NCBI GenBank assembly: GCA_017620655.1
Contig: JAGAUT010000034.1
Coordinates: forward strand, 2,334-66,333
Direction of reading: 5' to 3'
Source of the DNA: Clostridia bacterium
Lineage (GTDB): Bacteria; Bacillota; Clostridia; Oscillospirales; CAG-382
Length of the DNA: 64,000 nt
In this document: one piece after another, positions 1,079-27,231 of the stretch
How the letters are laid out: each line of letters opens with the position of its first letter
Position numbering within the stretch: the first letter of the stretch is position 1
Position numbers and translations under genes: made by a program
Notes under the pieces: model-generated
What the model saw: the letters and a program-made list of their open reading frames with translations, nothing else
What the model was told of the DNA's origin: nothing
Database searches by the model: none

Positions 1079-1169
1079 ATAAACCAATCAATCCTTTCTC
1101 TTTTATTGTATTCGATTAACCACGGTAAAACACCGCCGCACTAATTCCTGATTTATAACGCACTCCGTT

Positions 1170-2006
1170 TTAAAAGACCTGTTTTTTCTTTACTCCCGTA
1201 TCTACGCCGTCAAACAGCGGAACCTTATATCCCTCACAACGAGTCGCAATATTTTCAACCGCCTTGCAGAAGGGAGTTGTACCTCGGTAAAGCTCATATG
1301 CAAGCTTGCCCATTTCCTGACCCTTAGACATGGAAATGCTGAAGGGAACTACGCCCCAGAGCTGCATTTTTGTTTTTGAAATGATGTCGTAAAGTCCGAC
1401 ATTGACTCCGTCCTTGGCGTCCTTTGGCTTAAAGCCATTGACAATCAGCCTTATATCAAGGCCGCCTGCCGTAAGATTATCCTTGCCGTAGCCCGTCAGT
1501 TCATTAAGGGCAATGGCTGTTTTTTCTGCCGCTCTTATGGAGGCCGCGGTATGAAGTGAAATAACAAGTGCCGCATCCACAAGCTGGGCAAGATTACGGT
1601 AAAGGTTGTCAGGTCTTGCCGGAAGGTCGAATATTACATAGTCAAAACGGTTGGTAAGCTCTTTTACAAGGGCGGTGATTGCCTCCTTTGAAAATGAATC
1701 AGCGGTCATGCCGATTTCATGCCTTTCGGGATAGAAGGCAGGTGCGGAAATAAAATACAGGTTTTCACAGCGGGTATCACGCACTATGGCGTTATCAATT
1801 GTACATGTTCCCTTGATACAGTCACACAGATTGAAAAGCGTTGCATTCTCAAGTCCGAGAACAATATCGAGGCAGCGCGATTCAAGGTCACAGTCAACAG
1901 CAACCACACGGTGTCCGCGTCTTGCAAGGCTCATGGCAAGATTTGCCGATAAAGTTGTCTTTCCAACTCCGCCTTTGAACGAAGTTACAATATAGCTCTT
2001 GCCCAT
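1170..2006 (-). CDS. minD: Septum site-determining ATPase MinD
   Basis: Deviant Walker A KGGVGKTT, VDCDLESRCLDIVLGLE, DYVIFDLPA; adjacent to mgsA as in other Clostridia. Confidence 0.8.
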   Translation of the reverse strand: MGKSYIVTSFKGGVGKTTLSANLAMSLARRGHRVVAVDCDLESRCLDIVLGLENATLFNLCDCIKGTCTIDNAIVRDTRCENLYFISAPAFYPERHEIGMTADSFSKEAITALVKELTNRFDYVIFDLPARPDNLYRNLAQLVDAALVISLHTAASIRAAEKTAIALNELTGYGKDNLTAGGLDIRLIVNGFKPKDAKDGVNVGLYDIISKTKMQLWGVVPFSISMSKGQEMGKLAYELYRGTTPFCKAVENIATRCEGYKVPLFDGVDTGVKKKQVF

Positions 2007-4468: not shown

Positions 4469-6001
4469 ATGAAACTGCAGAATTTATGTGAAATATTAAA
4501 AGAAGAATTTGCCGAAAAAGTGCTGAACGAATCTGCAAATCTCAGCTGTGTATCCTGTGACGGTATATGCGGCGAATTTTCAGGGGTTACATTTGACTCC
4601 AGAGAAGTCAAAAAAGGTTACATTTTCGTTGCAATCACAGGTGTTGTGACAGACGGACACCTGTATATTCCCAAAGCCGTAGAGCTTGGTGCTGCGGCAA
4701 TCGTTTGCGAAAACGCCGAGATGTACAGAGAGTACAAGGAAGAATACAAAAACGTTCAGTTTTTCCTTGTAAAAAATGCAAGACGCGCTCTTGCCATTAT
4801 TTCAAAATGCTTCTACGGTAATGCCTGCGATAAGCTCACAATTATCGGTATCACAGGTACAAAGGGAAAGACAAGCACCTCCTTTATGATTTCAAAAATC
4901 TTAAACGAGGCTGGACAAAGGTGCGGTATCATAGGCACAACCGGTGCATATTTTGAAGACTATTTTGAGGAAATGAGCCACTCCACACCCGAAAGCCGTG
5001 ACCTTCACGCCCTCTTCGCAAAAATGCTCTCGCTCGGTGCTACCCACATTGTCATGGAGGTATCCTCGCAGGCACTCATGATGTACAGAGTCTACGGCAT
5101 TGAGTTTGAGGTCGGCATTTTTACAAACATCAGTCCTGACCATATCGGCGAAGGAGAACATTCGGACTTTAACGACTATCTCTACTGCAAGTCAAAGCTC
5201 TTCACTATGTGTAAAAAGGCGGTTATCAATGCAGACAGCGACAAGGCTCAGTACATTCTTGACGTGTGCAAGGTAAACGATGTAAAAAAAGTTGTTACAT
5301 ACGGCTGTGAAAGAGAGGATGTCGACTACAGAGCAGTAGGCGAAAAGTTCTTTATTGACGGCGGCATGAAGACCCACTTTGATGTTGTATCAAAGGATGA
5401 ACAGTACTCGGTTGAAGTAAGTGTTCCGGGAAAATTCTCTGTGTTCAATGCACTTTGTGCCATGAGCTGTGCTTTTACTCTCGGAATCAGTTTTGACAGT
5501 ATTGCAAAGGCACTCAAAAATGTAAAAGTAATAGGCAGAATAGAGCCTGTGGAAAATCCGAAATTAAAGGCTCCCGTCATCATTGACTATGCCCACAATG
5601 CCATGAGTCTTGAAAGTCTGTTTACGGCGGTTAAAGCATATAACCCCAAACGAATCATCTGCGTATTCGGCTGCGGTGGAAACCGTTCAAAGCTAAGACG
5701 ATATGAAATGGGCGAAATCAGCGGCAAATATGCCGACCTTTCAATCATCACAGCTGACAATTCACGCTTTGAAGAGCTTGACGATATCATTTCCGACATA
5801 CTTATCGGTATGCACAAAACAAGCGGAAAATATGAAATCGTAAAGGACAGAAAGGATGCCATTTACAGAGCCATTGACCTTTCCGAGGAAGGCGACATTG
5901 TACTTCTTGCAGGCAAGGGTCAGGAAACATATCTTGATGTCAAGGGCGTAAAAACCCATTTCGATGAAAGAGAAGTTGTTTGCTCCTATTTTGAAAGATA
6001 A
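4469..6001 (+). CDS. murE: UDP-N-acetylmuramoyl-L-alanyl-D-glutamate--diaminopimelate ligase
   Basis: GITGTKGKTS, MEVSSQAL, IDYAHN, FGCGGNR, DNSRFE, LAGKGQE. Confidence 0.93.
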   Translation: MKLQNLCEILKEEFAEKVLNESANLSCVSCDGICGEFSGVTFDSREVKKGYIFVAITGVVTDGHLYIPKAVELGAAAIVCENAEMYREYKEEYKNVQFFLVKNARRALAIISKCFYGNACDKLTIIGITGTKGKTSTSFMISKILNEAGQRCGIIGTTGAYFEDYFEEMSHSTPESRDLHALFAKMLSLGATHIVMEVSSQALMMYRVYGIEFEVGIFTNISPDHIGEGEHSDFNDYLYCKSKLFTMCKKAVINADSDKAQYILDVCKVNDVKKVVTYGCEREDVDYRAVGEKFFIDGGMKTHFDVVSKDEQYSVEVSVPGKFSVFNALCAMSCAFTLGISFDSIAKALKNVKVIGRIEPVENPKLKAPVIIDYAHNAMSLESLFTAVKAYNPKRIICVFGCGGNRSKLRRYEMGEISGKYADLSIITADNSRFEELDDIISDILIGMHKTSGKYEIVKDRKDAIYRAIDLSEEGDIVLLAGKGQETYLDVKGVKTHFDEREVVCSYFER

Positions 6002-6125
6002 ATTAACTCAATAATCAATTAAAGATCCCGTTTGTTATGTATGGATTTTATCAGTGGACGAACCGCGTTCATACAATAACAACGGGAGATTTTTTATTCT
6101 CCTACAACAGGAGGAGGTCTTATTT

Positions 6126-6350
6126 ATGGACACAAAATACTTGGTTTTCTCTTCTGTCACCTATGCACTCCGTGCCATGACCCTCTTAAAAAGACACGGA
6201 TTTTCTTCAAGACTTGAAAAAATAAAAAATATATCGGCTCTCGGCGGCTGCGGATATGTCCTTGCGGTAAATCTGGGAATTCTTGACGCCGCTGTTTCAA
6301 TAATTTCAGACGAAGGAATAAGGGTAATAGACATCCTTGATTACAAATGA
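6126..6350 (+). CDS. DUF3343-like small protein
   Basis: ATG 6126 after RBS ggagg; FSSVTYALRA...LGGCGY pattern; overlaps the next start codon (ATGA). Confidence 0.7.
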   Translation: MDTKYLVFSSVTYALRAMTLLKRHGFSSRLEKIKNISALGGCGYVLAVNLGILDAAVSIISDEGIRVIDILDYK

Positions 6351-7486
6351 GCCGTCTTATTTATCTCGACAATGCCGCTACAAGCTATCCAAAACCAAAG
6401 AACGTCATCCGTGCCGTAAATGACTGCCTTTTAAAGTGCGGTAACCCCGGCAGAAGCGGACACGAGCTGTCTTTGTATTCAGCAAGAGCAGTATACAACT
6501 GCCGTGAGGCAATATGCTCCTTTCTCAATTTCAACCATCCGGAAAATGTGGTATTCACCTACAACACCACCTATGCTCTCAACATGGCAATCAAAGGACT
6601 GATGGATGACGGCGGTGAAATAGTAATATCAAATCTTGAACACAACTCGGTTCTCCGCCCCGTCTCGGATTTGTCGCATAGCGGCAGAGACATAAGCTTT
6701 AAGGTGTTTGACGCTTTGGGGTGCGATGACGAAGTTATTACAAACTTTGAAAATACTCTGTCACCGGAGACAAAAATGTGTGTTGTCACCATGTGCTCGA
6801 ACGTAACAGGCAAAATTCTTCCGTACAAAAGGATAGGTGAAATATGCAAAAAAAGAGGAATAAAACTTATATTTGATGCGGCACAGTGTGCAGGGCTTAT
6901 ACCCATTGACCTGTCAGCCTTTTATTTTTCCGCAGTATGTTTTGCCGGTCACAAGTCGCTGTGTGGAATCATGGGGACGGGATTTTGTGTATTCTCGCCC
7001 GACACAGAACCTTTACCCATAATTCAGGGCGGCAACGGAGTTGAATCAATTTCTCAATTTCAATCCGGTCCTCTGCCCGAAAGGCTTGAGTCCGGAACCG
7101 TAGGTGTACCGGGAATAATTGCTCTGCACGAGGGCATAAAGCATATCACCTCTGCAGGCCTTGGGCATATAGGTGAAAAATGCTTATATCTTGAGTCAAG
7201 ACTGACGTCGGGGCTTTTGCAAACAGAAAACATCACCCTTTACGGCAGATGCCGTGACAAGGTTTCGACAGTGCTGTTCAGCATCGGCAAAGTCCCATCG
7301 GAGAAGGTGTCGGCTTACCTTTCCGAAAAAAGCATATGCGTAAGGGCAGGACTTCACTGTGCTCCCCTCGCCCACGAAGCACTCGGAACTACAGACACAG
7401 GTGCTGTAAGAGTTTCCATATCCCACTTCAATACAGGCGAGGACATTGATTTATTCTTAAAAGAAATCAGACTAATGACAAAATAA
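6347..7486 (+). CDS. Class V aminotransferase / cysteine desulfurase family protein (SufS/CsdA type)
   Basis: IYLDNAATSYPKP, FAGHKSL, RLESGT, RAGLHCAP. Confidence 0.88.
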   Translation: MSRLIYLDNAATSYPKPKNVIRAVNDCLLKCGNPGRSGHELSLYSARAVYNCREAICSFLNFNHPENVVFTYNTTYALNMAIKGLMDDGGEIVISNLEHNSVLRPVSDLSHSGRDISFKVFDALGCDDEVITNFENTLSPETKMCVVTMCSNVTGKILPYKRIGEICKKRGIKLIFDAAQCAGLIPIDLSAFYFSAVCFAGHKSLCGIMGTGFCVFSPDTEPLPIIQGGNGVESISQFQSGPLPERLESGTVGVPGIIALHEGIKHITSAGLGHIGEKCLYLESRLTSGLLQTENITLYGRCRDKVSTVLFSIGKVPSEKVSAYLSEKSICVRAGLHCAPLAHEALGTTDTGAVRVSISHFNTGEDIDLFLKEIRLMTK

Positions 7487-14490: not shown

Positions 14491-15948
14491 TTAATCAACA
14501 TTAATAATTTTACCCGTCACAAGATTTACAAGTCTCTGTGTTCTTGCATAGTCAGTGCTACAATACACACCGCCGTTGGGTGTCATAAAGGTTTCACCGT
14601 GGATATACGGATAAATCTTTGACATTTCGCCACTCTGCAAATCTATTTCATAGAAACCGCTGTTTACGGCAGAAATCGGGAAATTTACAGTGCCGATTCT
14701 ATCTTTATTTGCATCAAACCACATAGACTTTACATAAAGTTTGCCGTTTGCCTTGCCGATAACCTCGACGGAGTTGATCTTCTCTGAATACTTTTCAGCA
14801 TAGCTCAAAAGCACACTACTTCCCGATTTGTAATAGTAAACATCCGAGAATGAGTTTGACCATCTTGACATATTATTCGGCGAATAACCGCTTGAACAGA
14901 CGTAGTATCCGCCGTTACCATCCGAGAAAACACCGCTGAAATTATTCTTGTTATCCCATTCGAGCCTTGTAAATTTATCGCCGTTTTTCTCGACAACATA
15001 TTCATTGTGGTGGGAATAGGGTGCAACAATCTGACCTGAGTAGACAATAAGCTGTATAAGCGAGCTGTTTTCTCCGGTTGCATATTCGAAAGCCTGAATA
15101 TCGGAAATGTTTTCTGTGTTACATTCCATTATGAGTTTTTCCCCGAGATAAAGTCCGTTTTCCTTTGCAACAACTTCAATCTCTTTTGCTTCTTCTCTAC
15201 CATAGCTTCTGTCAAATTCAAACTTTTCGTTCTCATTCTTACTTTCAATCTTTGTCAACATTTCACTTTCAAGGTCAAGCTCGTAGAAATCCCAGTAGGT
15301 ATAAAGCAAATGATAGCCAAAACTTCCGTTTTCGTTGATACGTTCTTCATAAACCGCCCTTTGATTCTCAAAAAAAGCTGTTTTTTCATCCGATTTATAA
15401 GCATATGCCATACCATAGTTATCGCCGCGTTCAAGGAAGAAGGAATAGTTTTCCTGCGAGAAGGTTATATCAAAATTAAGTTCCTCATAGGCAAAACGCC
15501 ATGTCATAGGAAAATATGTAACATTTCTGAAATTGAGAAGAGGATATTCTTCCTTTGTATTATCAATTCTTATGCCGTTAAGATACACGGGGTATTTAGG
15601 TATAACAGCATTATATTCATCCTTTTCGTTTATTACACCGTCATAACCAAAAAGTCTTGGAACATAATCGTATTCCATTTCATGATAGTGCTTTGTAATA
15701 AAAAGCCCCTGTTGCGAGTCAAAACCTACCGACAGACCAAGCATGGTACAAAGGTCATATGTCATGGGGAAATATGTTACATCTTTGTAGGTAATAAGGG
15801 GATATTCAACGTATCTGTTATCAACGCTGACATCTTCAATCTGAGTATAAAAGGGTGCAATTTTCACCTTTACATTCTGTGCGTGGCAAATGCCGCAGAG
15901 AAGAAGTGTGAGTGTTGCCGTAACCAATAATACACGTAGTTTTTTCAT
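14491..15948 (-). CDS. Secreted hypothetical protein with a duplicated N-terminal module
   Basis: Signal peptide ending CHA; two copies of EYPL..(YK/FR).VTYFPMT. Confidence 0.75.
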   Translation of the reverse strand: MKKLRVLLVTATLTLLLCGICHAQNVKVKIAPFYTQIEDVSVDNRYVEYPLITYKDVTYFPMTYDLCTMLGLSVGFDSQQGLFITKHYHEMEYDYVPRLFGYDGVINEKDEYNAVIPKYPVYLNGIRIDNTKEEYPLLNFRNVTYFPMTWRFAYEELNFDITFSQENYSFFLERGDNYGMAYAYKSDEKTAFFENQRAVYEERINENGSFGYHLLYTYWDFYELDLESEMLTKIESKNENEKFEFDRSYGREEAKEIEVVAKENGLYLGEKLIMECNTENISDIQAFEYATGENSSLIQLIVYSGQIVAPYSHHNEYVVEKNGDKFTRLEWDNKNNFSGVFSDGNGGYYVCSSGYSPNNMSRWSNSFSDVYYYKSGSSVLLSYAEKYSEKINSVEVIGKANGKLYVKSMWFDANKDRIGTVNFPISAVNSGFYEIDLQSGEMSKIYPYIHGETFMTPNGGVYCSTDYARTQRLVNLVTGKIINVD

Positions 15949-16031
15949 GACATTCTTTCCTTTCTTTTGTCATAATAAGTTGTTTCGGAGTTTATCCTTC
16001 GCACGAACCTGCCGCCACACGCATTTACTTC

Positions 16032-16234
16032 AAATAAAAAGTGCGACAAACGAAGCTGCCGCACGAAAAACGCCACTCCACTTGTCGCCAAACAAATTTA
16101 AATAGAATTAGAGAAACCCCTACAATCATTTAAAGGAGCACGCTTTTTTACCGTATTCACAAATGATTATAGGCAGAAAAGGGTACAATTATACCCATAA
16201 AAATACTCCAATTCCATTATTAAATCTGTTTGGC
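16032..16234 (-). ncRNA. Putative structured leader/attenuator RNA, copy A
   Basis: TTGACA (16269-16264)-17-TAAAAT (16246-16241); the 5' end pairs with 16099-16087; shared core and terminator with copy B. Confidence 0.65.
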
Positions 16235-16301
16235 ATAATTATTTTAACATATGGCAAAAAAACTGTCAAGTTGTTTTGCCGAAAAGCGGTTTCGGCTGAC
16301 A

Positions 16302-19703: not shown

Positions 19704-22094
19704 CTAACCTCTTAAAGTAATTCCAAGGTCAAATTCAAGACCCTTAAGAATCTTGGCAACTGCCTTATCGCATTCTTCAACGGAAAGTGTCTTTTCAGGG
19801 CTTCTGAGAACAAGGTTATAAGCCATGGACTTCTTGCCTACGCCTACCTTTTCTTCGTCCTCGAAGATATCAAATACTTCAACAGATTCGAGAAGCTTTC
19901 CGCCGTACTTCTTGATAGCCTTCTTGATTTCGCCGGATGTAAGTGCCTTATCGCATACAAATGCAAGGTCACGTTCAGATGAGGGGAACTTGGGAAGTGC
20001 CTTATAGTGCTTATCGAAGTTCTGCATTGTCATCATAAGCTCTGTATCGCATACGATAACATAGCTTTCAATATCAAGTCCGTAGTTTTCCTGAACTGTG
20101 GGATGAAGCTGACCGAATACGATAAGTCTCTGTCCGTCACGGCTGACAACACTTGCACATCTTCCGGGGTGGAATGCAGGAGCTTCTGTGTTGGGTACAA
20201 AATCGTAACCCTTGATACCGAGAAGGTCGAGAATGTTTTCGCAAACACCCTTCATGTCATAGAAGTCTACGTCGCCGTATGCCGCGATTACCGTTGACAT
20301 ACGTTCGTCGGGCTGATCTTCGCCTTCCTTTGTGATATAAACCTTTGCGTTTTCATAAATCCTAGCATTCTTGTTTCTGTATCTTCTGTTTGTTGCGAGC
20401 ACTTCAAGAACGCGGGGAACTGCGGTTGTTCTCATGATGCTGGTGTCTTCACCGAGGGGCTTTGAAATAACTACAGACTTACGAAGAGGAGAATCTGCCG
20501 GCATACAAATATTATCGTAGTACTTGGGGCTGATGAAGGAGAAGGTCTGCACTTCATAGTAGCCCTCGCCTGTAAGAAGCTCATCAATAAGCTTTAAGCT
20601 GTTCTGCTTTGCATTGCGTCTTCCGACAAGTGCCTCTGCCTTGAAGTTTGTTGTGGGAATGAGGTCATAGCCGTGGATACGGATAACTTCTTCTGCAATA
20701 TCCTGCATACATTCAAGGTCTGCTCTGTATGACGGAGGATAAAGAACACCGTCTACAAGTTCAATTTCAAGCTTCTTGAAAATTGCTTTCATTTCTTCTT
20801 CGGCAACATCTGTGCCAAGGAATGCGTTAATCTTGTCTGCATCAAAAGGAATTGCATTTTTTGCCGGCTTTTCGGGATATACATCGATGATTCCCTTTAC
20901 AACTTCACCGGCACCGAGAAGTTCGATAAGTTCGCAGGCTCTCTCAATTGCACCAAGTGTGTTTTCGGGGTCAAGTCCCTTTTCATATCTGCCGGATGCT
21001 TCTGTACGAAGACCGATTGCCTTTGCCGTAAGTCTTACGGAAGGACCGTTGAAGTTTGCACTTTCAAATACTATTGTCTTGGTATTATCATTGATTTCGC
21101 TGTTTTCGCCGCCCATTACACCTGCAACCGCAACTGCCTTATCAGCGTCTGCAATAACAAGCATTTCTTCTGAAAGCTGTCTTTCGATGCTGTCAAGAGT
21201 TGTAATCTTTTCGTCCTTTTCGGCGTGTCTTACAACAATCTTTGAGCCACCGAGGAAGGATGCATCAAATGCATGCATAGGCTGACCGTATTCGAGACAA
21301 ACGTAGTTTGTGATATCTACGATGTTATTGATGGGTCTTATGCCGCAAGCGCGAAGTCTTGAACGCAACCACTTGGGAGAGGGCTCAATCTTTACATTTT
21401 CAACAACTCTTGCTGTGTATCTAGGGCAGAGCTTTGAGTCGAGAACCTCAACGCTGATATAGTCATTAATCGTCTTGCCGTTATCAGTTTCTTTTACAAC
21501 AGGTGTGGGAATTGTAACATCTGTATCAAAAGATGCCGCAGTTTCTCTTGCAAGACCAATCATGGAAAGACAGTCGGGACGGTTGGATGTAATTTCAAAT
21601 TCAACAGTCACGTCATCAAGTCCGAGAACCTTACAAATATCGTCGCCGGGCTTGCAGTCTTCCTGAAGAAGGAAAATACCGTCTTCTTCTGCATAGGGGA
21701 AATCATGCTTATCGAGACCGAGTTCGCCGAGTGAACAGAGCATACCGTTGGAGGGAACTCCTCTGAGCTTACCTGCCTTGATATGAACACCGCCGGGAAG
21801 GTAAGAATCGTGAAGCGCCGCAGGAACAAGCTCGCCTGGCTTTACATTCTGTGCACCTGTAACAATCTGTACGGGTTCTTCCGCACCGATATCAACCATA
21901 CAGATGAGAAGATGGTCAGAATCGGGATGCTTTTCAACGGTAATAAGCTTACCTACTACTACATTTTTGATTTCATCGGCAGGACATTCGTAGCCTTCTA
22001 CCTTTGAGCCTGTCATTGTAAGCTTATCGGAGTAAGCCTTGGGGTCAAAGTCTTCTTTTACATAGTCCTTTAACCAGTTCATTGATAATTTCAT
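19704..22094 (-). CDS. pheT: Phenylalanine--tRNA ligase beta subunit
   Basis: 796 aa; EITSNRPDCLS, NNIVDITNY, RYEKG, C-terminal FDX-ACB domain. Confidence 0.97.
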   Translation of the reverse strand: MKLSMNWLKDYVKEDFDPKAYSDKLTMTGSKVEGYECPADEIKNVVVGKLITVEKHPDSDHLLICMVDIGAEEPVQIVTGAQNVKPGELVPAALHDSYLPGGVHIKAGKLRGVPSNGMLCSLGELGLDKHDFPYAEEDGIFLLQEDCKPGDDICKVLGLDDVTVEFEITSNRPDCLSMIGLARETAASFDTDVTIPTPVVKETDNGKTINDYISVEVLDSKLCPRYTARVVENVKIEPSPKWLRSRLRACGIRPINNIVDITNYVCLEYGQPMHAFDASFLGGSKIVVRHAEKDEKITTLDSIERQLSEEMLVIADADKAVAVAGVMGGENSEINDNTKTIVFESANFNGPSVRLTAKAIGLRTEASGRYEKGLDPENTLGAIERACELIELLGAGEVVKGIIDVYPEKPAKNAIPFDADKINAFLGTDVAEEEMKAIFKKLEIELVDGVLYPPSYRADLECMQDIAEEVIRIHGYDLIPTTNFKAEALVGRRNAKQNSLKLIDELLTGEGYYEVQTFSFISPKYYDNICMPADSPLRKSVVISKPLGEDTSIMRTTAVPRVLEVLATNRRYRNKNARIYENAKVYITKEGEDQPDERMSTVIAAYGDVDFYDMKGVCENILDLLGIKGYDFVPNTEAPAFHPGRCASVVSRDGQRLIVFGQLHPTVQENYGLDIESYVIVCDTELMMTMQNFDKHYKALPKFPSSERDLAFVCDKALTSGEIKKAIKKYGGKLLESVEVFDIFEDEEKVGVGKKSMAYNLVLRSPEKTLSVEECDKAVAKILKGLEFDLGITLRG

Positions 22095-22113: not shown

Positions 22114-23133
22114 TTAAAACTGTGACAGGAAGCGAACATCGTTTTCATAGAGAAGACGCATATCGCTGATGCCGAACTTTGTCATAACTATTCTTTCAAT
22201 ACCCATACCGAAGGCAAAACCGGAATATACTTCAGGGTCAATGCCGCTCATTCTGAGAACGTTGGGGTGTACCATGCCGGCACCGAGAATTTCTATCCAG
22301 CCTTCGCCCTTACATACGCTGCAGCCGCTTCCGCCGCATACGAAGCAAGAAACGTCAACCTCGCAGGAGGGTTCTGTGAAGGGGAAATGGTGGGGACGGA
22401 ATCTGATTTCTGTCTTTTCGCCGAACATCTGCTTAGCAAAGAGAAGAAGTGTTCCCTTGAGGTCGGACATTGTGATGCCCTTATCGATAACAAGACCTTC
22501 GCACTGGTGGAACATAGGAGAATGTGTTGCGTCAACGGCATCACTTCTGTAAACACGTCCGGGAGAAATAACTCTTATCGGAGGCTTATTCTCTTCCATG
22601 GCATGAACCTGTGTGGTACTTGTCTGGCTTCTGAGAAGCACCTTGTCTGTGATATAGAATGTATCCTGAACGTCACGCGCAGGGTGGAATTCGGGAGTAT
22701 TGAGGGCTGTGAAGTTGTAGTAATCTGTTTCAACTTCGGGGCCTTCTGCAATGGAGAAGCCCATGCCGAGGAAAATTTCTTCCATTTCTCTCTGAATGGA
22801 TGTAAGAGGATGAAGCTTTCCGCAGGAGCACTTCTTTGCAGGAAGTGTTACGTCAATAGTTTCCTTCTCAAGTTTCTTTGCAAGTTCTTTCTTGCCGATC
22901 TCTTTCTTTGCTTCTTCGAGAGCATTGGTGATTGCTTCTCTTACGCTGTTACCGAGAGCACCCATAACAGGTCTTTCTTCGGGGGTAAGCGAACCCATAT
23001 TTTTGAGAACCGCAGTAAGCGGACTCTTTTTGCCGAGGTAGGATACTCTTACATTTTCGAGATCCTGTGCGCTTTCAGCCTTTGCGATGGCTTCAAGTGC
23101 CTCAGCCTTAACCTTTTCAAGTTGTGCCTTCAT
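22114..23133 (-). CDS. pheS: Phenylalanine--tRNA ligase alpha subunit
   Basis: [27 protein letters not shown]. Confidence 0.97.
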
Positions 23134-23164: not shown

Positions 23165-23414
23165 AAAAAATCCCCTACGGCTTTCACCGTAAGGGACGTT
23201 ATATTACGCGGTACCACCCTTGTTTCCGACAAATATCGGACACCTCTTTGCATACACTTCATATGCTCTGTCTGTAACGGGACACACCGTCATATCCTTT
23301 AAGATATGCCGCTCCAAAGCGAAACGCAATTTCCACAACCTTTAGGACTTTCCAGCTTACGTCCCTCTCTGCCAAAGGTTTACATGGAAACGCACTCTTT
23401 TTCAACGCGTTTAC
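23165..23414 (-). promoter_or_regulatory. T-box riboswitch (Phe) upstream of pheST
   Basis: T-box AAGGGTGGTACCGCG (23221-23207); terminator 23196-23165; AGAGA and GCTGGAAA stem I motifs; probable UUC specifier at 23323-23321; promoter TTGCAA-17-TATACT. Confidence 0.92.
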
Positions 23415-25523: not shown

Positions 25524-25745
25524 TTATATTTTAGCTCCCAAAAACAAATCAAAGGTGATTCCAAGATACTTTATGATGACCGCAAAAGTGTCAAGCGAAG
25601 GTATACGCTGACCGTTTTCCACCTTGCTGATATAGCTTTCAGCTTTGCCGATATCAAGGCTCATCTGCTTTGCCGACACCCCTTTGAGCTTTCTGAAAAA
25701 TCTCATTCTTTTTGCAACATCCGCTTTCAGTTCTTCACGCTTCAT
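25524..25745 (-). CDS. XRE family helix-turn-helix protein
   Basis: 73 aa from ATG 25745 (RBS aaagggtgg); RKLKGVSAKQMS...SYISKVENGQRIPSLDT. Confidence 0.85.
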   Translation of the reverse strand: MKREELKADVAKRMRFFRKLKGVSAKQMSLDIGKAESYISKVENGQRIPSLDTFAVIIKYLGITFDLFLGAKI

Positions 25746-25763
25746 ACAACCACCCTTTCGGTA

Positions 25764-25930
25764 AAATAAAAAGTGCGCAGCCGAAGCCACGCACGAAAAA
25801 CACATGACTCCTTTTGCTGCGACACAATTATCGAACCACACCGAAGTGCATACGAAACAGAGCATGTATTTTTACCAAAGGATATAAAAATACACACTTC
25901 AAAGTTGTGGTTCATATTAAATTGTGTCGC
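25764..25930 (-). ncRNA. Putative structured leader/attenuator RNA, copy B
   Basis: TTGACA (25965-25960)-17-TATTAT (25942-25937); 5' GCGACACAATT pairs with 25829-25819; terminator 25794-25764. Confidence 0.65.
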
Positions 25931-25973
25931 AGGATTATAATAGCACATTTTTTATATTGTGTCAAGATAAGAA

Positions 25974-26006
25974 ATTCGCCCATGTCGTAGTTTGACATGG
26001 GCGAAT
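25974..26006. repeat. AAACNNC-loop hairpin (probable terminator of the MBOAT operon)
   Basis: attcgcccatgtc-gtagttt-gacatgggcgaat. Confidence 0.7.
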
Positions 26007-26070
26007 CATAATAATTGTGAATATAACAATAGTTTCGCAACATAGAAAATGGCTGTGCGAAATTATTTTC

Positions 26071-26109: not shown

Positions 26110-27231
26110 TCAGCGGGTGCTGCCTGCAAAATCCTTAAGCGCTCTGCCACCGTTGATGATACCTGTTGAATAAAGGAAAAGAACATCGGCATCGTCTCCA
26201 AAGCCGGAAATCTGCTTGATAAAATCGGGGACAATATAGCGAAGGTCAACAAATGTTACCTTCTTATATCCCATAGCAAGAAGCGGTGCGATGCTGGAGC
26301 CAAAGGAGTCTCTGAACACAACGAGCTCTTTGCCGTTTGTCGCATTCGGGTTTTCGATTATGACAAGATGCTGTGCACCTGCCGCAAACATATCATAGGG
26401 GTCATTGTTCTTAAACATATCGGTAACATACACGGGGTATTCGTGTCTCTTTCCCATGTCATCAATCACCGTCATGACCATATTATCCGTCACATCATTT
26501 GAAAGGTACTTTATCTCATCGGGGCTGAGGCTGAGTGCCGACTGACCGTAGTACACACCGTAAAAAGGAGAAAGGGTGTTTGTCTTCCACTCTGTATCAA
26601 AAACATGTGCACTCGGATTCATCGACGAAACAAGCTTATCAGCAACGCCGAGGATTTTATCCTGACTCCAATGAGAGTCGGTTTTATAATAGTCGGAAAG
26701 GCTGAGCTTATCTGTTATATCGATATATTCCATGCCCGAAAGTCCGTCATGCACCAAAGTGAAAAGCTTGTCGTAATCCATGGCGGGATATCCGTTTTCC
26801 TTTGAAGCATAATAATGCTTATCGGGGACAATGGAGTAATAAACCTTATCGTCTGAAAAATACTTATCCACAACCTTGTTTACAAGGTCAACGGTATACT
26901 GTACCTGAGCTTCGTCCAGCTTTTCTTCAATCTTTATAACGGTTCCGTCCTGAACATAAATGTCATTGTTATCGTTCTTCTTAAGAACATCCATAAAAGC
27001 AAACGCCTTGAGACTTCTGAAAGAATCACGAAGCGGAAACTGGTCGAGAAAATATCCTTCGATTTCATCGAATATATGTGTATCGTTCTCTTTAAGCGAC
27101 TGCATTGTCGCAAGTGGACGGCGTTCGGATTTGGATATCGTCTTTTCAGGTGACAGGAAAAGCATGAGAGAAAGAGTAAGAATAACAAGGCAGAAAACAA
27201 CTGCATTTGAAATAAGTCTTATTTTTTTCAT
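26110..27231 (-). CDS. DHHW family (AlgJ/AlgX-like) extracellular protein
   Basis: N-terminal TM, SERRPLA, DQFPLRD, YKTDSHW, FRDSFGSS, DLRY. Confidence 0.85.
   Translation of the reverse strand: MKKIRLISNAVVFCLVILTLSLMLFLSPEKTISKSERRPLATMQSLKENDTHIFDEIEGYFLDQFPLRDSFRSLKAFAFMDVLKKNDNNDIYVQDGTVIKIEEKLDEAQVQYTVDLVNKVVDKYFSDDKVYYSIVPDKHYYASKENGYPAMDYDKLFTLVHDGLSGMEYIDITDKLSLSDYYKTDSHWSQDKILGVADKLVSSMNPSAHVFDTEWKTNTLSPFYGVYYGQSALSLSPDEIKYLSNDVTDNMVMTVIDDMGKRHEYPVYVTDMFKNNDPYDMFAAGAQHLVIIENPNATNGKELVVFRDSFGSSIAPLLAMGYKKVTFVDLRYIVPDFIKQISGFGDDADVLFLYSTGIINGGRALKDFAGSTR

Follow-up and report, generated by a model that had tools for sequence, protein, structure and literature searches.

A multi-copy family of structured leader RNAs in gut Clostridia with the predicted design of a transcription attenuator

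In Bartonella, nine highly structured Brt RNAs (~194–203 nt) each lie directly before a small XRE-type helix-turn-helix (HTH) gene (Trp); in laboratory conditions their transcription stops before the gene, a riboswitch-like terminator together with a trans-acting small RNA (sRNA) role was proposed for them, and they were described as genus-specific, with BLAST stated to find nothing similar beyond Bartonella (Tu et al. 2016, PMC5387305). In human microbiomes, HTH_XRE was found to be the commonest domain lying directly downstream of structured RNA candidates, and unnamed candidates were found beside LRR_5 genes in Clostridia (Fremin & Bhatt 2021, PMC8040213). Here, two elements (copies A and B) were analysed that are read on the minus strand of a 64-kb stretch from a Clostridia bacterium genome (64,000 nt of contig JAGAUT010000034.1, assembly GCA_017620655.1; hereafter 'the window'). 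Both are real members of a large, publicly uncatalogued family of leader RNAs, ~160–200 nt in length, of gut Clostridia. The genome has eight such copies, and quite likely this promoter-anchored leader acts as a transcription attenuator built of several hairpins. Attenuators of this mechanistic class are known; new are the family itself and its pseudoknot and toehold architecture.

Two leaders and the family around them

Copies A and B were scanned with promoter and terminator patterns, and their folds were compared with 200 shuffles each. Both promoters, of the sigma-70 type (TTGACA-17-(−10)), were found at the minus-strand places that an earlier note on the letters of the window had assigned to them, and the predicted transcription start in each is a G located 7 nt past the −10 box (16234 in A and 25930 in B). 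From this G onwards, the first 13 nt of A (GCCAAACAGATTT) pair with RNA nt 136–148 (AAATTTGTTTGGC) and the first 11 nt of B (GCGACACAATT) with nt 102–112 (AATTGTGTCGC), forming the closing stem P1. The minimum free energy (MFE) folds, in which every interior stem named earlier appears, are at −76.5 kcal/mol for A (z −7.5) and −60.7 kcal/mol for B (z −6.6), and in neither case did any of the 200 shuffles equal them. Each predicted transcript ends with a terminator stem of 9 bp plus a U tract. The extents first proposed for the two transcripts were placed correctly, with their ends at 16032 and 25764 now corrected to ~16031 and ~25763. The genes that follow start exactly 84 nt (A) and 19 nt (B) past the terminator as had been read, and the pattern scan, in agreement with the earlier reading, found no second promoter on the minus strand in either gap.

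When aligned with each other, A and B are identical in 76% of the columns, and all of the words that had been listed as common to both are present in the alignment (ATTTAATA, GTATTTTTAT, GGTAAAAA, GGAGT and GTTTTTCGTGCG...CGCACTTTTTATTT). The earlier note had taken the two for a pair of paralogues. They are indeed copies of one family, of which the 2.2-Mb genome holds eight rather than two (as found by BLAST, nhmmer and a covariance model (CM), R1), and three of these eight have diverged considerably (CM R1 scores of 61.9, 46.9 and 30.1 bits).

The building of a CM and a search of Clostridia genomes had been suggested as a check; run here, the search yielded hundreds of copies. With CM R1, a discovery model built from the core-to-terminator region that favours close relatives, matches were found in 73 of 121 genomes and 13 of 15 genera of the GTDB family sample, in 108 of 301 genomes and 59 of 152 genera of the order sample, and in 121 of 399 genomes and 59 of 217 genera of the sample of class Clostridia, for which at most 8 scored candidates per genome were counted. 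The number of copies per genome reaches at least 16. Moreover, the exact core 18-mer is present in at least 120 stretches of GTDB representative genomes, whose carriers are nearly all Oscillospiraceae, Ruminococcaceae, Acutalibacteraceae and 'Clostridia bacterium' metagenome-assembled genomes from human, ruminant and rabbit guts; its few matches in unrelated taxa are consistent with the ~17 chance matches estimated per 18-mer in 596 Gb.

Consistent with the earlier remark that no known riboswitch was recognizable, neither A nor B belongs to an Rfam 15 family at gathering thresholds (4227 models, including T-box RF00230, PyrR RF00515 and c-di-GMP-I/II), and at E≤10 just chance-level matches (E>0.5) to eukaryotic small nucleolar RNA, microRNA and long non-coding RNA models were returned. 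Literature searches turned up no description of this Clostridia leader family. Among phages, the matches are just two unannotated faecal 'Bacteriophage sp.' contigs (~75% identity); IMG/VR contained no exact match for either the 18-mer or the 19-mer of the family, and plasmid sequences contained no match to it.

Five segments and their competing helices

The anatomy of the family was derived from 96 non-identical homologues. The layout found is a promoter-anchored P1 (GCNACAYAA...), an A5 core that pairs with a U5 tail, a terminator of the form GUGCG...CGCAC and a varied accessory cargo. The promoter consensus is TTGaca..TGnTAtaaT (an extended −10), followed after 6 nt by GC, and is present in ~80 of 93 homologous loci. 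P1, of at least 12 bp, begins at +1 in 78 of the 93 and shows compensatory changes (position 3: GC 43, CG 24, UA 8, AU 3; position 5: CG 61, AU 16). Its 5′ strand is followed by a conserved A/U bulge of 5–9 nt (UUAAUAU; TAATA at 25915–25919 in B) and then by a variable stem, P2 (25906–25914 with 25832–25840 in B). The bulge was considered as a kink-turn and rejected by eye, 5–9 nt on the 5′ strand against 0–2 nt opposite being a poor fit to the kink-turn consensus.

Segment 1 (consensus AAGUGUGUAUUUUUAY) is shared between two stems. P3 (1a:2b) joins its 5′ half to GCAUACUU, which lies downstream of the core, and has a mean of −12.2 kcal/mol as compared with −7.25 kcal/mol for chimeras (z −18.6). 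P3a is made up of the segment 1 U run and the A tract in the core (segment 2), so that CAUGCUCU(AUUUUC) stays single-stranded; helix 1:2 averages −13.0 kcal/mol versus −10.6 kcal/mol for chimeras (z −10). In B, correspondingly, the two halves of segment 1 have separate partners, segment 2b (25843–25853) for the 5′ half and the segment 2 A tract for the U-rich 3′ half; CATGCTCT remains single-stranded, as a predicted toehold. A 7-nt spacer, mostly AGCAAUC, follows P1.

Copy A represents a subtype, with a P1 of GCCAAAC.../...GUUUGGC, two extra hairpins between segments 1 and 2 (16181–16196; 16161–16173 with 16119–16131) and a core located within a 29-nt hairpin loop. The former of the two hairpins (GGGTATAATTGTACCC, minus strand) is followed by TTTTCT and is terminator-like by the scan; it might represent a weak early stop in the A subtype.

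Together, the five segments pair in a chain of mutually exclusive helices: 1:2, 2:3, 3:4 and 4:5. Pairing was assessed on a covariation alignment of 98 sequences and, for the full states, on 30 full-length leaders aligned with MAFFT by sequence alone; the shuffle statistics are without phylogeny correction, for which the slid controls and the cognate-versus-chimera tests correct partly. Across the helices, 92–99% of the cells are paired as compared with 21–59% when the strands are slid (33–82% for 2:3 alone on the 98 sequences), and each helix prefers its own partner over those of other copies (z about −9 to −19). Furthermore, all four competing helices are present, with similar energies, in eight of the eight copies of the genome. 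The earlier note had named covariation among homologues as a check, and it is found here: double-change cells exceed the shuffles for both 2:3 and 3:4, in addition to the compensatory changes in P1.

In helix 2:3, the core G(U)AAAAAURCAUGCUCU is complementary over ~15 bp to the tail GGAGY(N)RUGYGUUUUUC that follows the spacer after P1. The complementarity was noticed by eye in the five close copies and is retained by the three divergent ones, whose letters are quite different; RNAalifold picks it unprompted. On the 98 sequences, 98.1% of the cells are paired, with 116 double-change cells versus 13.3 after shuffling, and the paired fraction is likewise 98.1% on the MAFFT-only alignment of 30 leaders. 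Cognate duplexes average −15.2 kcal/mol and chimeras −12.4 kcal/mol (z −14). The last pair of 2:3 is G–C in 79 and A–U in 13 and lies right against the pair with which the terminator begins. Helix 2:3 was also considered as the antiterminator itself and rejected: its 3′ strand stops exactly one base before the terminator stem, without overlap, and the true competitor of the terminator is 3:4.

Helix 3:4 is a G–U-rich hairpin of ~12 bp with a UUUUUC loop, in which segment 3 pairs with the terminator 5′ strand plus its loop (segment 4). On an alignment not fitted to it, 94.1% of the cells are paired (21–54% when slid), with 35 double-change cells versus 13.3 ± 3. Its mean of −11.4 kcal/mol compares with −4.65 kcal/mol for a shuffled linker (the native one being better in 96 of 96) and with −9.55 kcal/mol for chimeras (z −8.7). 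The terminator, 4:5, is folded by all 98 aligned homologues, with a mean of −15.8 kcal/mol. G–U pairs are plentiful (for example, GU in 87 of 98 at one antiterminator position), and only an RNA read from this strand accounts for them. The sequence GGAGT, earlier spoken of as a core, turned out to be not an unpaired core but the 5′ end of the segment that pairs either with the internal segment or, alternatively, with the terminator 5′ strand.

As for the combined states on the 30-leader alignment, the set P1, P3, P3a and 3:4 (ON) is paired in 95.4% of the cells versus 33–59% when slid, and the set P1, P3, 2:3 and 4:5 (OFF) in 96.7% versus 29–59%. Three sequence features of such attenuators are present: a terminator directly 5′ of the gene, a conserved antiterminator that excludes it, and an anti-antiterminator that sequesters the antiterminator 5′ strand. 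The attenuator logic that had been proposed earlier is supported by a covarying antiterminator (3:4) and anti-antiterminator (2:3), neither of which had been noticed at that time.

Two other candidates were tried and rejected. Pairing of the core A tract with the terminator 3′ strand and U tract works, by eye, for copy C51 alone and is not general. A leader peptide is suggested in B by an apparent Shine–Dalgarno–AUG (GGAGTCATG), which is absent or out of frame in A, C76 and others, and the AUG belongs to the core pairing. The positions of all features are given in Table 1.

Table 1. Window coordinates of copies A and B, their segments and the genes that follow them
Feature	Position	Strand	Evidence or value
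Copy A promoter, TTGACA-17-TAAAAT, TG preceding −10	16241–16269	−	pattern scan, 11/12 match
Copy A predicted transcript, 204 nt, +1 G to end of U tract	16031–16234	−	CM R1, 108.1 bits
A: P1 5′ strand, from +1 (partner 16087–16099)	16222–16234	−	fold; P1 covariation among homologues
A: segment 1 (GTATTTTTAT), U-rich rival for segment 2 A tract	16197–16206	−	1:2 = −9.6 kcal/mol, 44-nt loop
A: segment 2 core (GGTAAAAAAGCGTGCTCC), inside loop of 13-bp hairpin	16135–16152	−	2:3 = −13.0 kcal/mol
A: P1 3′ strand, then 7-nt spacer GACAAGT (16080–16086)	16087–16099	−	fold
A: segment 3 (GGAGTGGCGTTTTTC), partner segment 2 (putative anti-antiterminator) or segment 4 (putative antiterminator)	16065–16079	−	pairing tests
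A: terminator; segment 4 16056–16064, segment 5 16041–16049, U tract 16031–16040	16041–16064	−	4:5 = −12.8 kcal/mol
Gene after A, 485-aa secreted protein, signal peptide, no Pfam match	14491–15948	−	
Copy B promoter, TTGACA-17-TATTAT, TG preceding −10	25937–25965	−	pattern scan, 11/12 match
Copy B predicted transcript, 168 nt	25763–25930	−	CM R1, 117.3 bits
B: P1 5′ strand, from +1 (partner 25819–25829)	25920–25930	−	fold; P1 99.4% paired in 30-leader alignment
B: segment 1 (GAAGTGTGTATTTTTAT)	25884–25900	−	P3 92.2% and P3a 95.7% paired (30-leader alignment)
B: segment 2 core (GGTAAAAATACATGCTCT), A tract common to P3a and long-range helix	25859–25876	−	fold, pairing tests
B: segment 3 (GGAGTCATGTGTTTTTC), preceded by spacer AGCAAAA (25812–25818)	25795–25811	−	2:3 = −15.1, 3:4 = −11.9 kcal/mol
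B: terminator; segment 4 25786–25794, UUCG loop, segment 5 25773–25781, U tract 25763–25772	25773–25794	−	4:5 = −15.3 kcal/mol
Gene after B, 73-aa XRE-type HTH; monocistronic, convergent with + strand rpsF-ssb-(rpsR)	25524–25745	−	
Recurrent family words GCGACACAA..., AAAAATGCA/TGCATTTTT			

The proposed switch and its rivals

The attenuator logic supported by these pairings, at the level of sequence, would be that of anti-antiterminator, antiterminator and terminator plus one extra layer (1:2). In this scheme, transcription would start at the G that is the first base of P1, and 1:2 would form as hairpin P3a within the P1–P2–P3 rod. The long-range helix 2:3, abutting the terminator stem, would act as the anti-antiterminator and, as it crosses P1 and P2, would be a pseudoknot. 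The 3:4 hairpin would capture the terminator 5′ strand and thereby serve as the antiterminator, with 4:5 as the putative intrinsic terminator. An OFF state (2:3 plus 4:5) would terminate and give an RNA of ~160–200 nt, whereas an ON state (1:2 plus 3:4) would allow read-through into the gene, the ribosome-binding site of which would come immediately after. In the common subtype, P3 is predicted to hold the 3′ half of the core, CAUGCUCU, single-stranded as a toehold, at which segment 3 would dock once made and then displace segment 1 from the A tract.

The exposure of this toehold by P3 suggests an OFF default, and the sums of mean helix energies point the same way (OFF ~−31 kcal/mol, ON ~−24 kcal/mol); the default state in this model is probably OFF. 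To reach ON would require masking of the toehold, locking of P3a or a kinetic advantage of the local 3:4 hairpin, for which a ligand, a protein, a trans RNA or RNA polymerase kinetics are candidate factors. Whereas the anatomy, its conservation and its covariation are observed, we infer which way the regulation runs, which state is the default and that a trigger exists. As for geometry, the 7-nt spacer plus ~15–20 unpaired bases past the core look sufficient for 2:3 to lie beside the P1–P2 rod, stacked on the terminator.

Several observations weigh against the attenuator reading. At −15.8 kcal/mol, the terminator exceeds the antiterminator (−11.4 kcal/mol) in stability, thus read-through would rest on kinetics, and the RNAfold energies leave the pseudoknot unmodelled. 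Some of the conserved parts (GUGCG/CGCAC and A5/U5) never vary and are therefore uninformative on structure. Conserved unpaired nucleotides are few and A/U-rich, with P2 and the inserts being variable, unlike in most metabolite aptamers, and nothing in the sequence data points to a trigger. Among the sequencing runs in which the locus is found, some are DNA metagenomes and the others are contigs of unknown kind whose depth is flat at ~5; none gave transcript evidence. Finally, ~8% of the loci (orphans that face convergent genes, and tandem cassettes with nothing in between) are without a gene to regulate, so the terminated RNA may also act on its own.

That terminated RNA is the starting point of one rival explanation, in which the product is a multi-copy trans-acting sRNA of ~160–200 nt (compare Brt, Qrr, LhrC and the csRNAs) to which the genic position is secondary, or a leader that doubles as an sRNA. 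The promoters are strong and constitutive-looking, a stable RNA is expected as its 5′ end is buried in P1 and its 3′ end in the terminator hairpin, and non-cognate duplexes of segments 2 and 3 still reach ~−12 kcal/mol, so that copies could cross-talk in trans; the orphan and tandem cassettes without ORF (open reading frame), such as L056, L119 and L122, fit as well, and Bartonella Brt1, proposed as both sRNA and riboswitch-like leader, is a precedent (PMC5387305). Yet for a pure sRNA, a covarying antiterminator in competition with the terminator of the same RNA would serve no need, and in 59 of 81 ORF-bearing loci the start codon is ≤30 nt from the U tract, too close for a promoter to fit in between. 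Together with the constant co-orientation of leader and gene, and with no conserved single-stranded seed complementary to a common target having been found, this makes the sRNA explanation unlikely. A further rival does without a dedicated trigger: the element would be a portable promoter with a leaky kinetic terminator, and expression would be low, noisy or dependent on growth rate, nucleoside triphosphates or temperature, as set by the speed of RNA polymerase versus the displacement of 1:2 by segment 3. This would agree with ON being favoured only kinetically (~−24 versus ~−31 kcal/mol for OFF), with the U runs just before segment 4 and at the terminator as candidate pause sites, with a very heterogeneous cargo and with the existence of tandem cassettes. 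A conserved five-segment design with a toehold across dozens of genera exceeds what such a device needs, however, and we judge it improbable.

A more specific version of the attenuator reading is a true riboswitch, in which P1, the bulge, P2, P3 and P3a would form an aptamer for a small molecule or a nucleotide second messenger, and binding would keep segment 2 from segment 3 and turn ON a regulon of surface and accessory genes. Many copies per genome precede unrelated surface, regulator and accessory genes, and c-di-GMP riboswitch regulons likewise have many copies per genome ahead of unrelated genes; the 5′ bulge (UUAAUAU), the apical loop and the pseudoknot beside the expression platform are all conserved. 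On the other hand, few unpaired positions are conserved, all of them A/U-rich, and the length of P2 varies freely. Within the presumed aptamer, subtype A has two additional hairpins; at 15 bp, the switching helix greatly exceeds the P1 helices that are typically gated by ligands; and no Rfam aptamer matches, which leaves this version rather unlikely. Scarcely credible is a repeat that works at the level of DNA (a miniature inverted-repeat transposable element (MITE), a REP-like element or a recombination site) rather than as RNA. Multiple intergenic copies with long inverted repeats would suit it, but pairing is kept via G–U, which would be C–A mismatches on the opposite strand, the element always starts 7 nt past a −10 box, ends in a terminator and is co-oriented with the following gene, the stems covary while promoter and terminator stay fixed, and neither target-site duplications nor a transposase were found. 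Retron msr/msd, integron attC and MITE were also considered as candidates and rejected, there being no reverse transcriptase and a misfit of the R′/R″ boxes, with the G–U pairs and promoter anchoring favouring RNA.

The attenuator reading remains the preferred one. An extension of it, which is possible but doubtful, would make the leader the cis half of a regulon-wide switch in Oscillospirales-type Clostridia of gut and rumen: a new riboswitch class or an RNA-binding regulator would sense one global signal (a second messenger, or a host or phage cue), mask CAUGCUCU and co-induce dozens of surface, XRE and defence-like genes per genome, with the terminated leaders doubling as trans RNAs.

If the switch reading is true, few unstudied riboregulators in the microbiota of the mammalian gut would be as widespread as these leaders, which are present in about one-third of the sampled Clostridia genomes with copies up to at least 16. 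They precede cell-surface genes (BspA-type leucine-rich repeat (LRR) proteins, secreted proteins and lipoproteins), small XRE regulators and defence-like genes, and the identity of the trigger would show how uncultured Oscillospirales co-ordinate the expression of accessory genes. A promoter-anchored rod with a toehold, a 15-bp pseudoknot anti-antiterminator and a G–U-rich antiterminator would, if true, represent natural toehold-mediated strand displacement that controls transcription, and the leader design might be transferable for use as a tool. A CM of the family would, in annotation, account for hundreds of 'empty' 200-nt intergenic regions.

Downstream genes, neighbouring features and described systems

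A catalogue of the downstream genes, another check suggested earlier, agrees with the accessory character first ascribed to them: XRE regulators, surface or secreted proteins, small ORFs and defence-like genes. The model match ends a median of 16 nt before the start codon. Among the 81 downstream ORFs, 38 are ≤100 aa and 24 have a signal-like or transmembrane-like N terminus. The A subtype precedes the same secreted-protein gene in relatives (L049 and L052), and copy C54, like B, precedes a small XRE HTH protein (64 aa). The other cargo in this genome includes a YpsA/SLOG protein, membrane and small proteins without a Pfam match, and, after copy C15, a 430-aa coiled-coil protein with DUF4041 and T5orf172 (GIY-YIG-like) domains (G000 contig C15 ~5180–6470, minus strand), an architecture typical of genes that are phage-related or lie in defence islands. 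In relatives, BspA-type LRR_5 surface proteins, Cys-rich peptides, WG-repeat proteins and SPFH proteins were found. The commonest single cargo there is a 77-aa protein without a Pfam match and with the pattern MNIKLELLRNYISDF...EIDASQIADTTAI...YSDFEAIEEIVCIFEKY.ID.G.RHDF (nine loci: L101, L074, L103, L107, L080, L109, L082, L128 and L056), followed by a family of 43–65 aa, MPDYKxMYFELFN.VTD (MPDYxxMYF), at five loci.

By filter, 12 of the 96 loci are without a co-directional ORF, and ~8 are truly orphan, either facing convergent genes (such as L119 and L122) or being tandem cassettes. At L056, from a relative in the same GTDB family, three promoter–leader–terminator cassettes (1793–1925, 1501–1622 and 1152–1285, minus strand) lie ~300 nt apart with no ORF between them, and the gene, of the 77-aa MNIKLELL family, comes only after the last one. 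Similar tandem cassettes are found at G024:C7:140422/140738, L090, L099 and L127. A separate, conserved word, AAAGGTTGCT(A/G)CACAC(A/T)TTT, follows the leader terminator at three unrelated loci (L104, L051 and L087) where no ORF is present, with a second terminator after it at L104; it may represent a further small element or else the degenerate end of a cassette.

Two neighbouring features of the window were also recorded. Immediately 5′ of the −35 box of copy B lies a GC-rich hairpin of 14 bp (GATTCGCCCATGTC...GACATGGGCGAATT, 25973–26007, minus strand), which probably terminates the preceding DHHW-family gene (26110–27231), so that the B cassette would begin right behind it. The sole match to Rfam 15 in the whole window at gathering threshold is a T-box leader (23189–23414, minus strand; 100.9 bits versus a gathering score of 93), which precedes ORFs of 339 aa (22114–23133) and 796 aa (19704–22094) that look like pheS and pheT.

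In mechanism, the leaders resemble those of the PyrR-controlled pyr operon of Bacillus subtilis (RF00515), which have three successive, mutually exclusive hairpins and occur in several copies per genome, and in which the most upstream hairpin (the anti-antiterminator) decides whether the antiterminator pre-empts the terminator just before the gene. The Clostridia leaders differ in that they are without the PyrR-binding loop and without a match to the Rfam model, their cargo is not pyrimidine genes, and their putative anti-antiterminator is a 15-bp long-range pseudoknot helix, rather than a local hairpin, that is opposed by a fourth pairing (1:2). With the SAM-I, ZTP and c-di-GMP-II riboswitches they have in common an internal loop that pairs with a segment just past P1 (a pseudoknot) and a terminator platform, and with the multi-copy second-messenger riboswitch regulons the many copies ahead of surface-protein genes; in contrast to these riboswitches, the Clostridia leaders have a much longer switching helix and few conserved unpaired nucleotides, and they match no Rfam aptamer. 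The unnamed candidates of Fremin & Bhatt may overlap the Clostridia family, although PMC8040213, with which the comparison is by description only, describes neither a mechanism nor this family. By analogy, the nearest functional analogue would be the Brt/Trp system of Bartonella: a multi-copy structured RNA of ~200 nt with a terminator and a small XRE gene next to it, a description that copies B and C54 fit. Compared likewise by description only, the two systems differ in phylum, and most of the Clostridia copies precede genes other than XRE.

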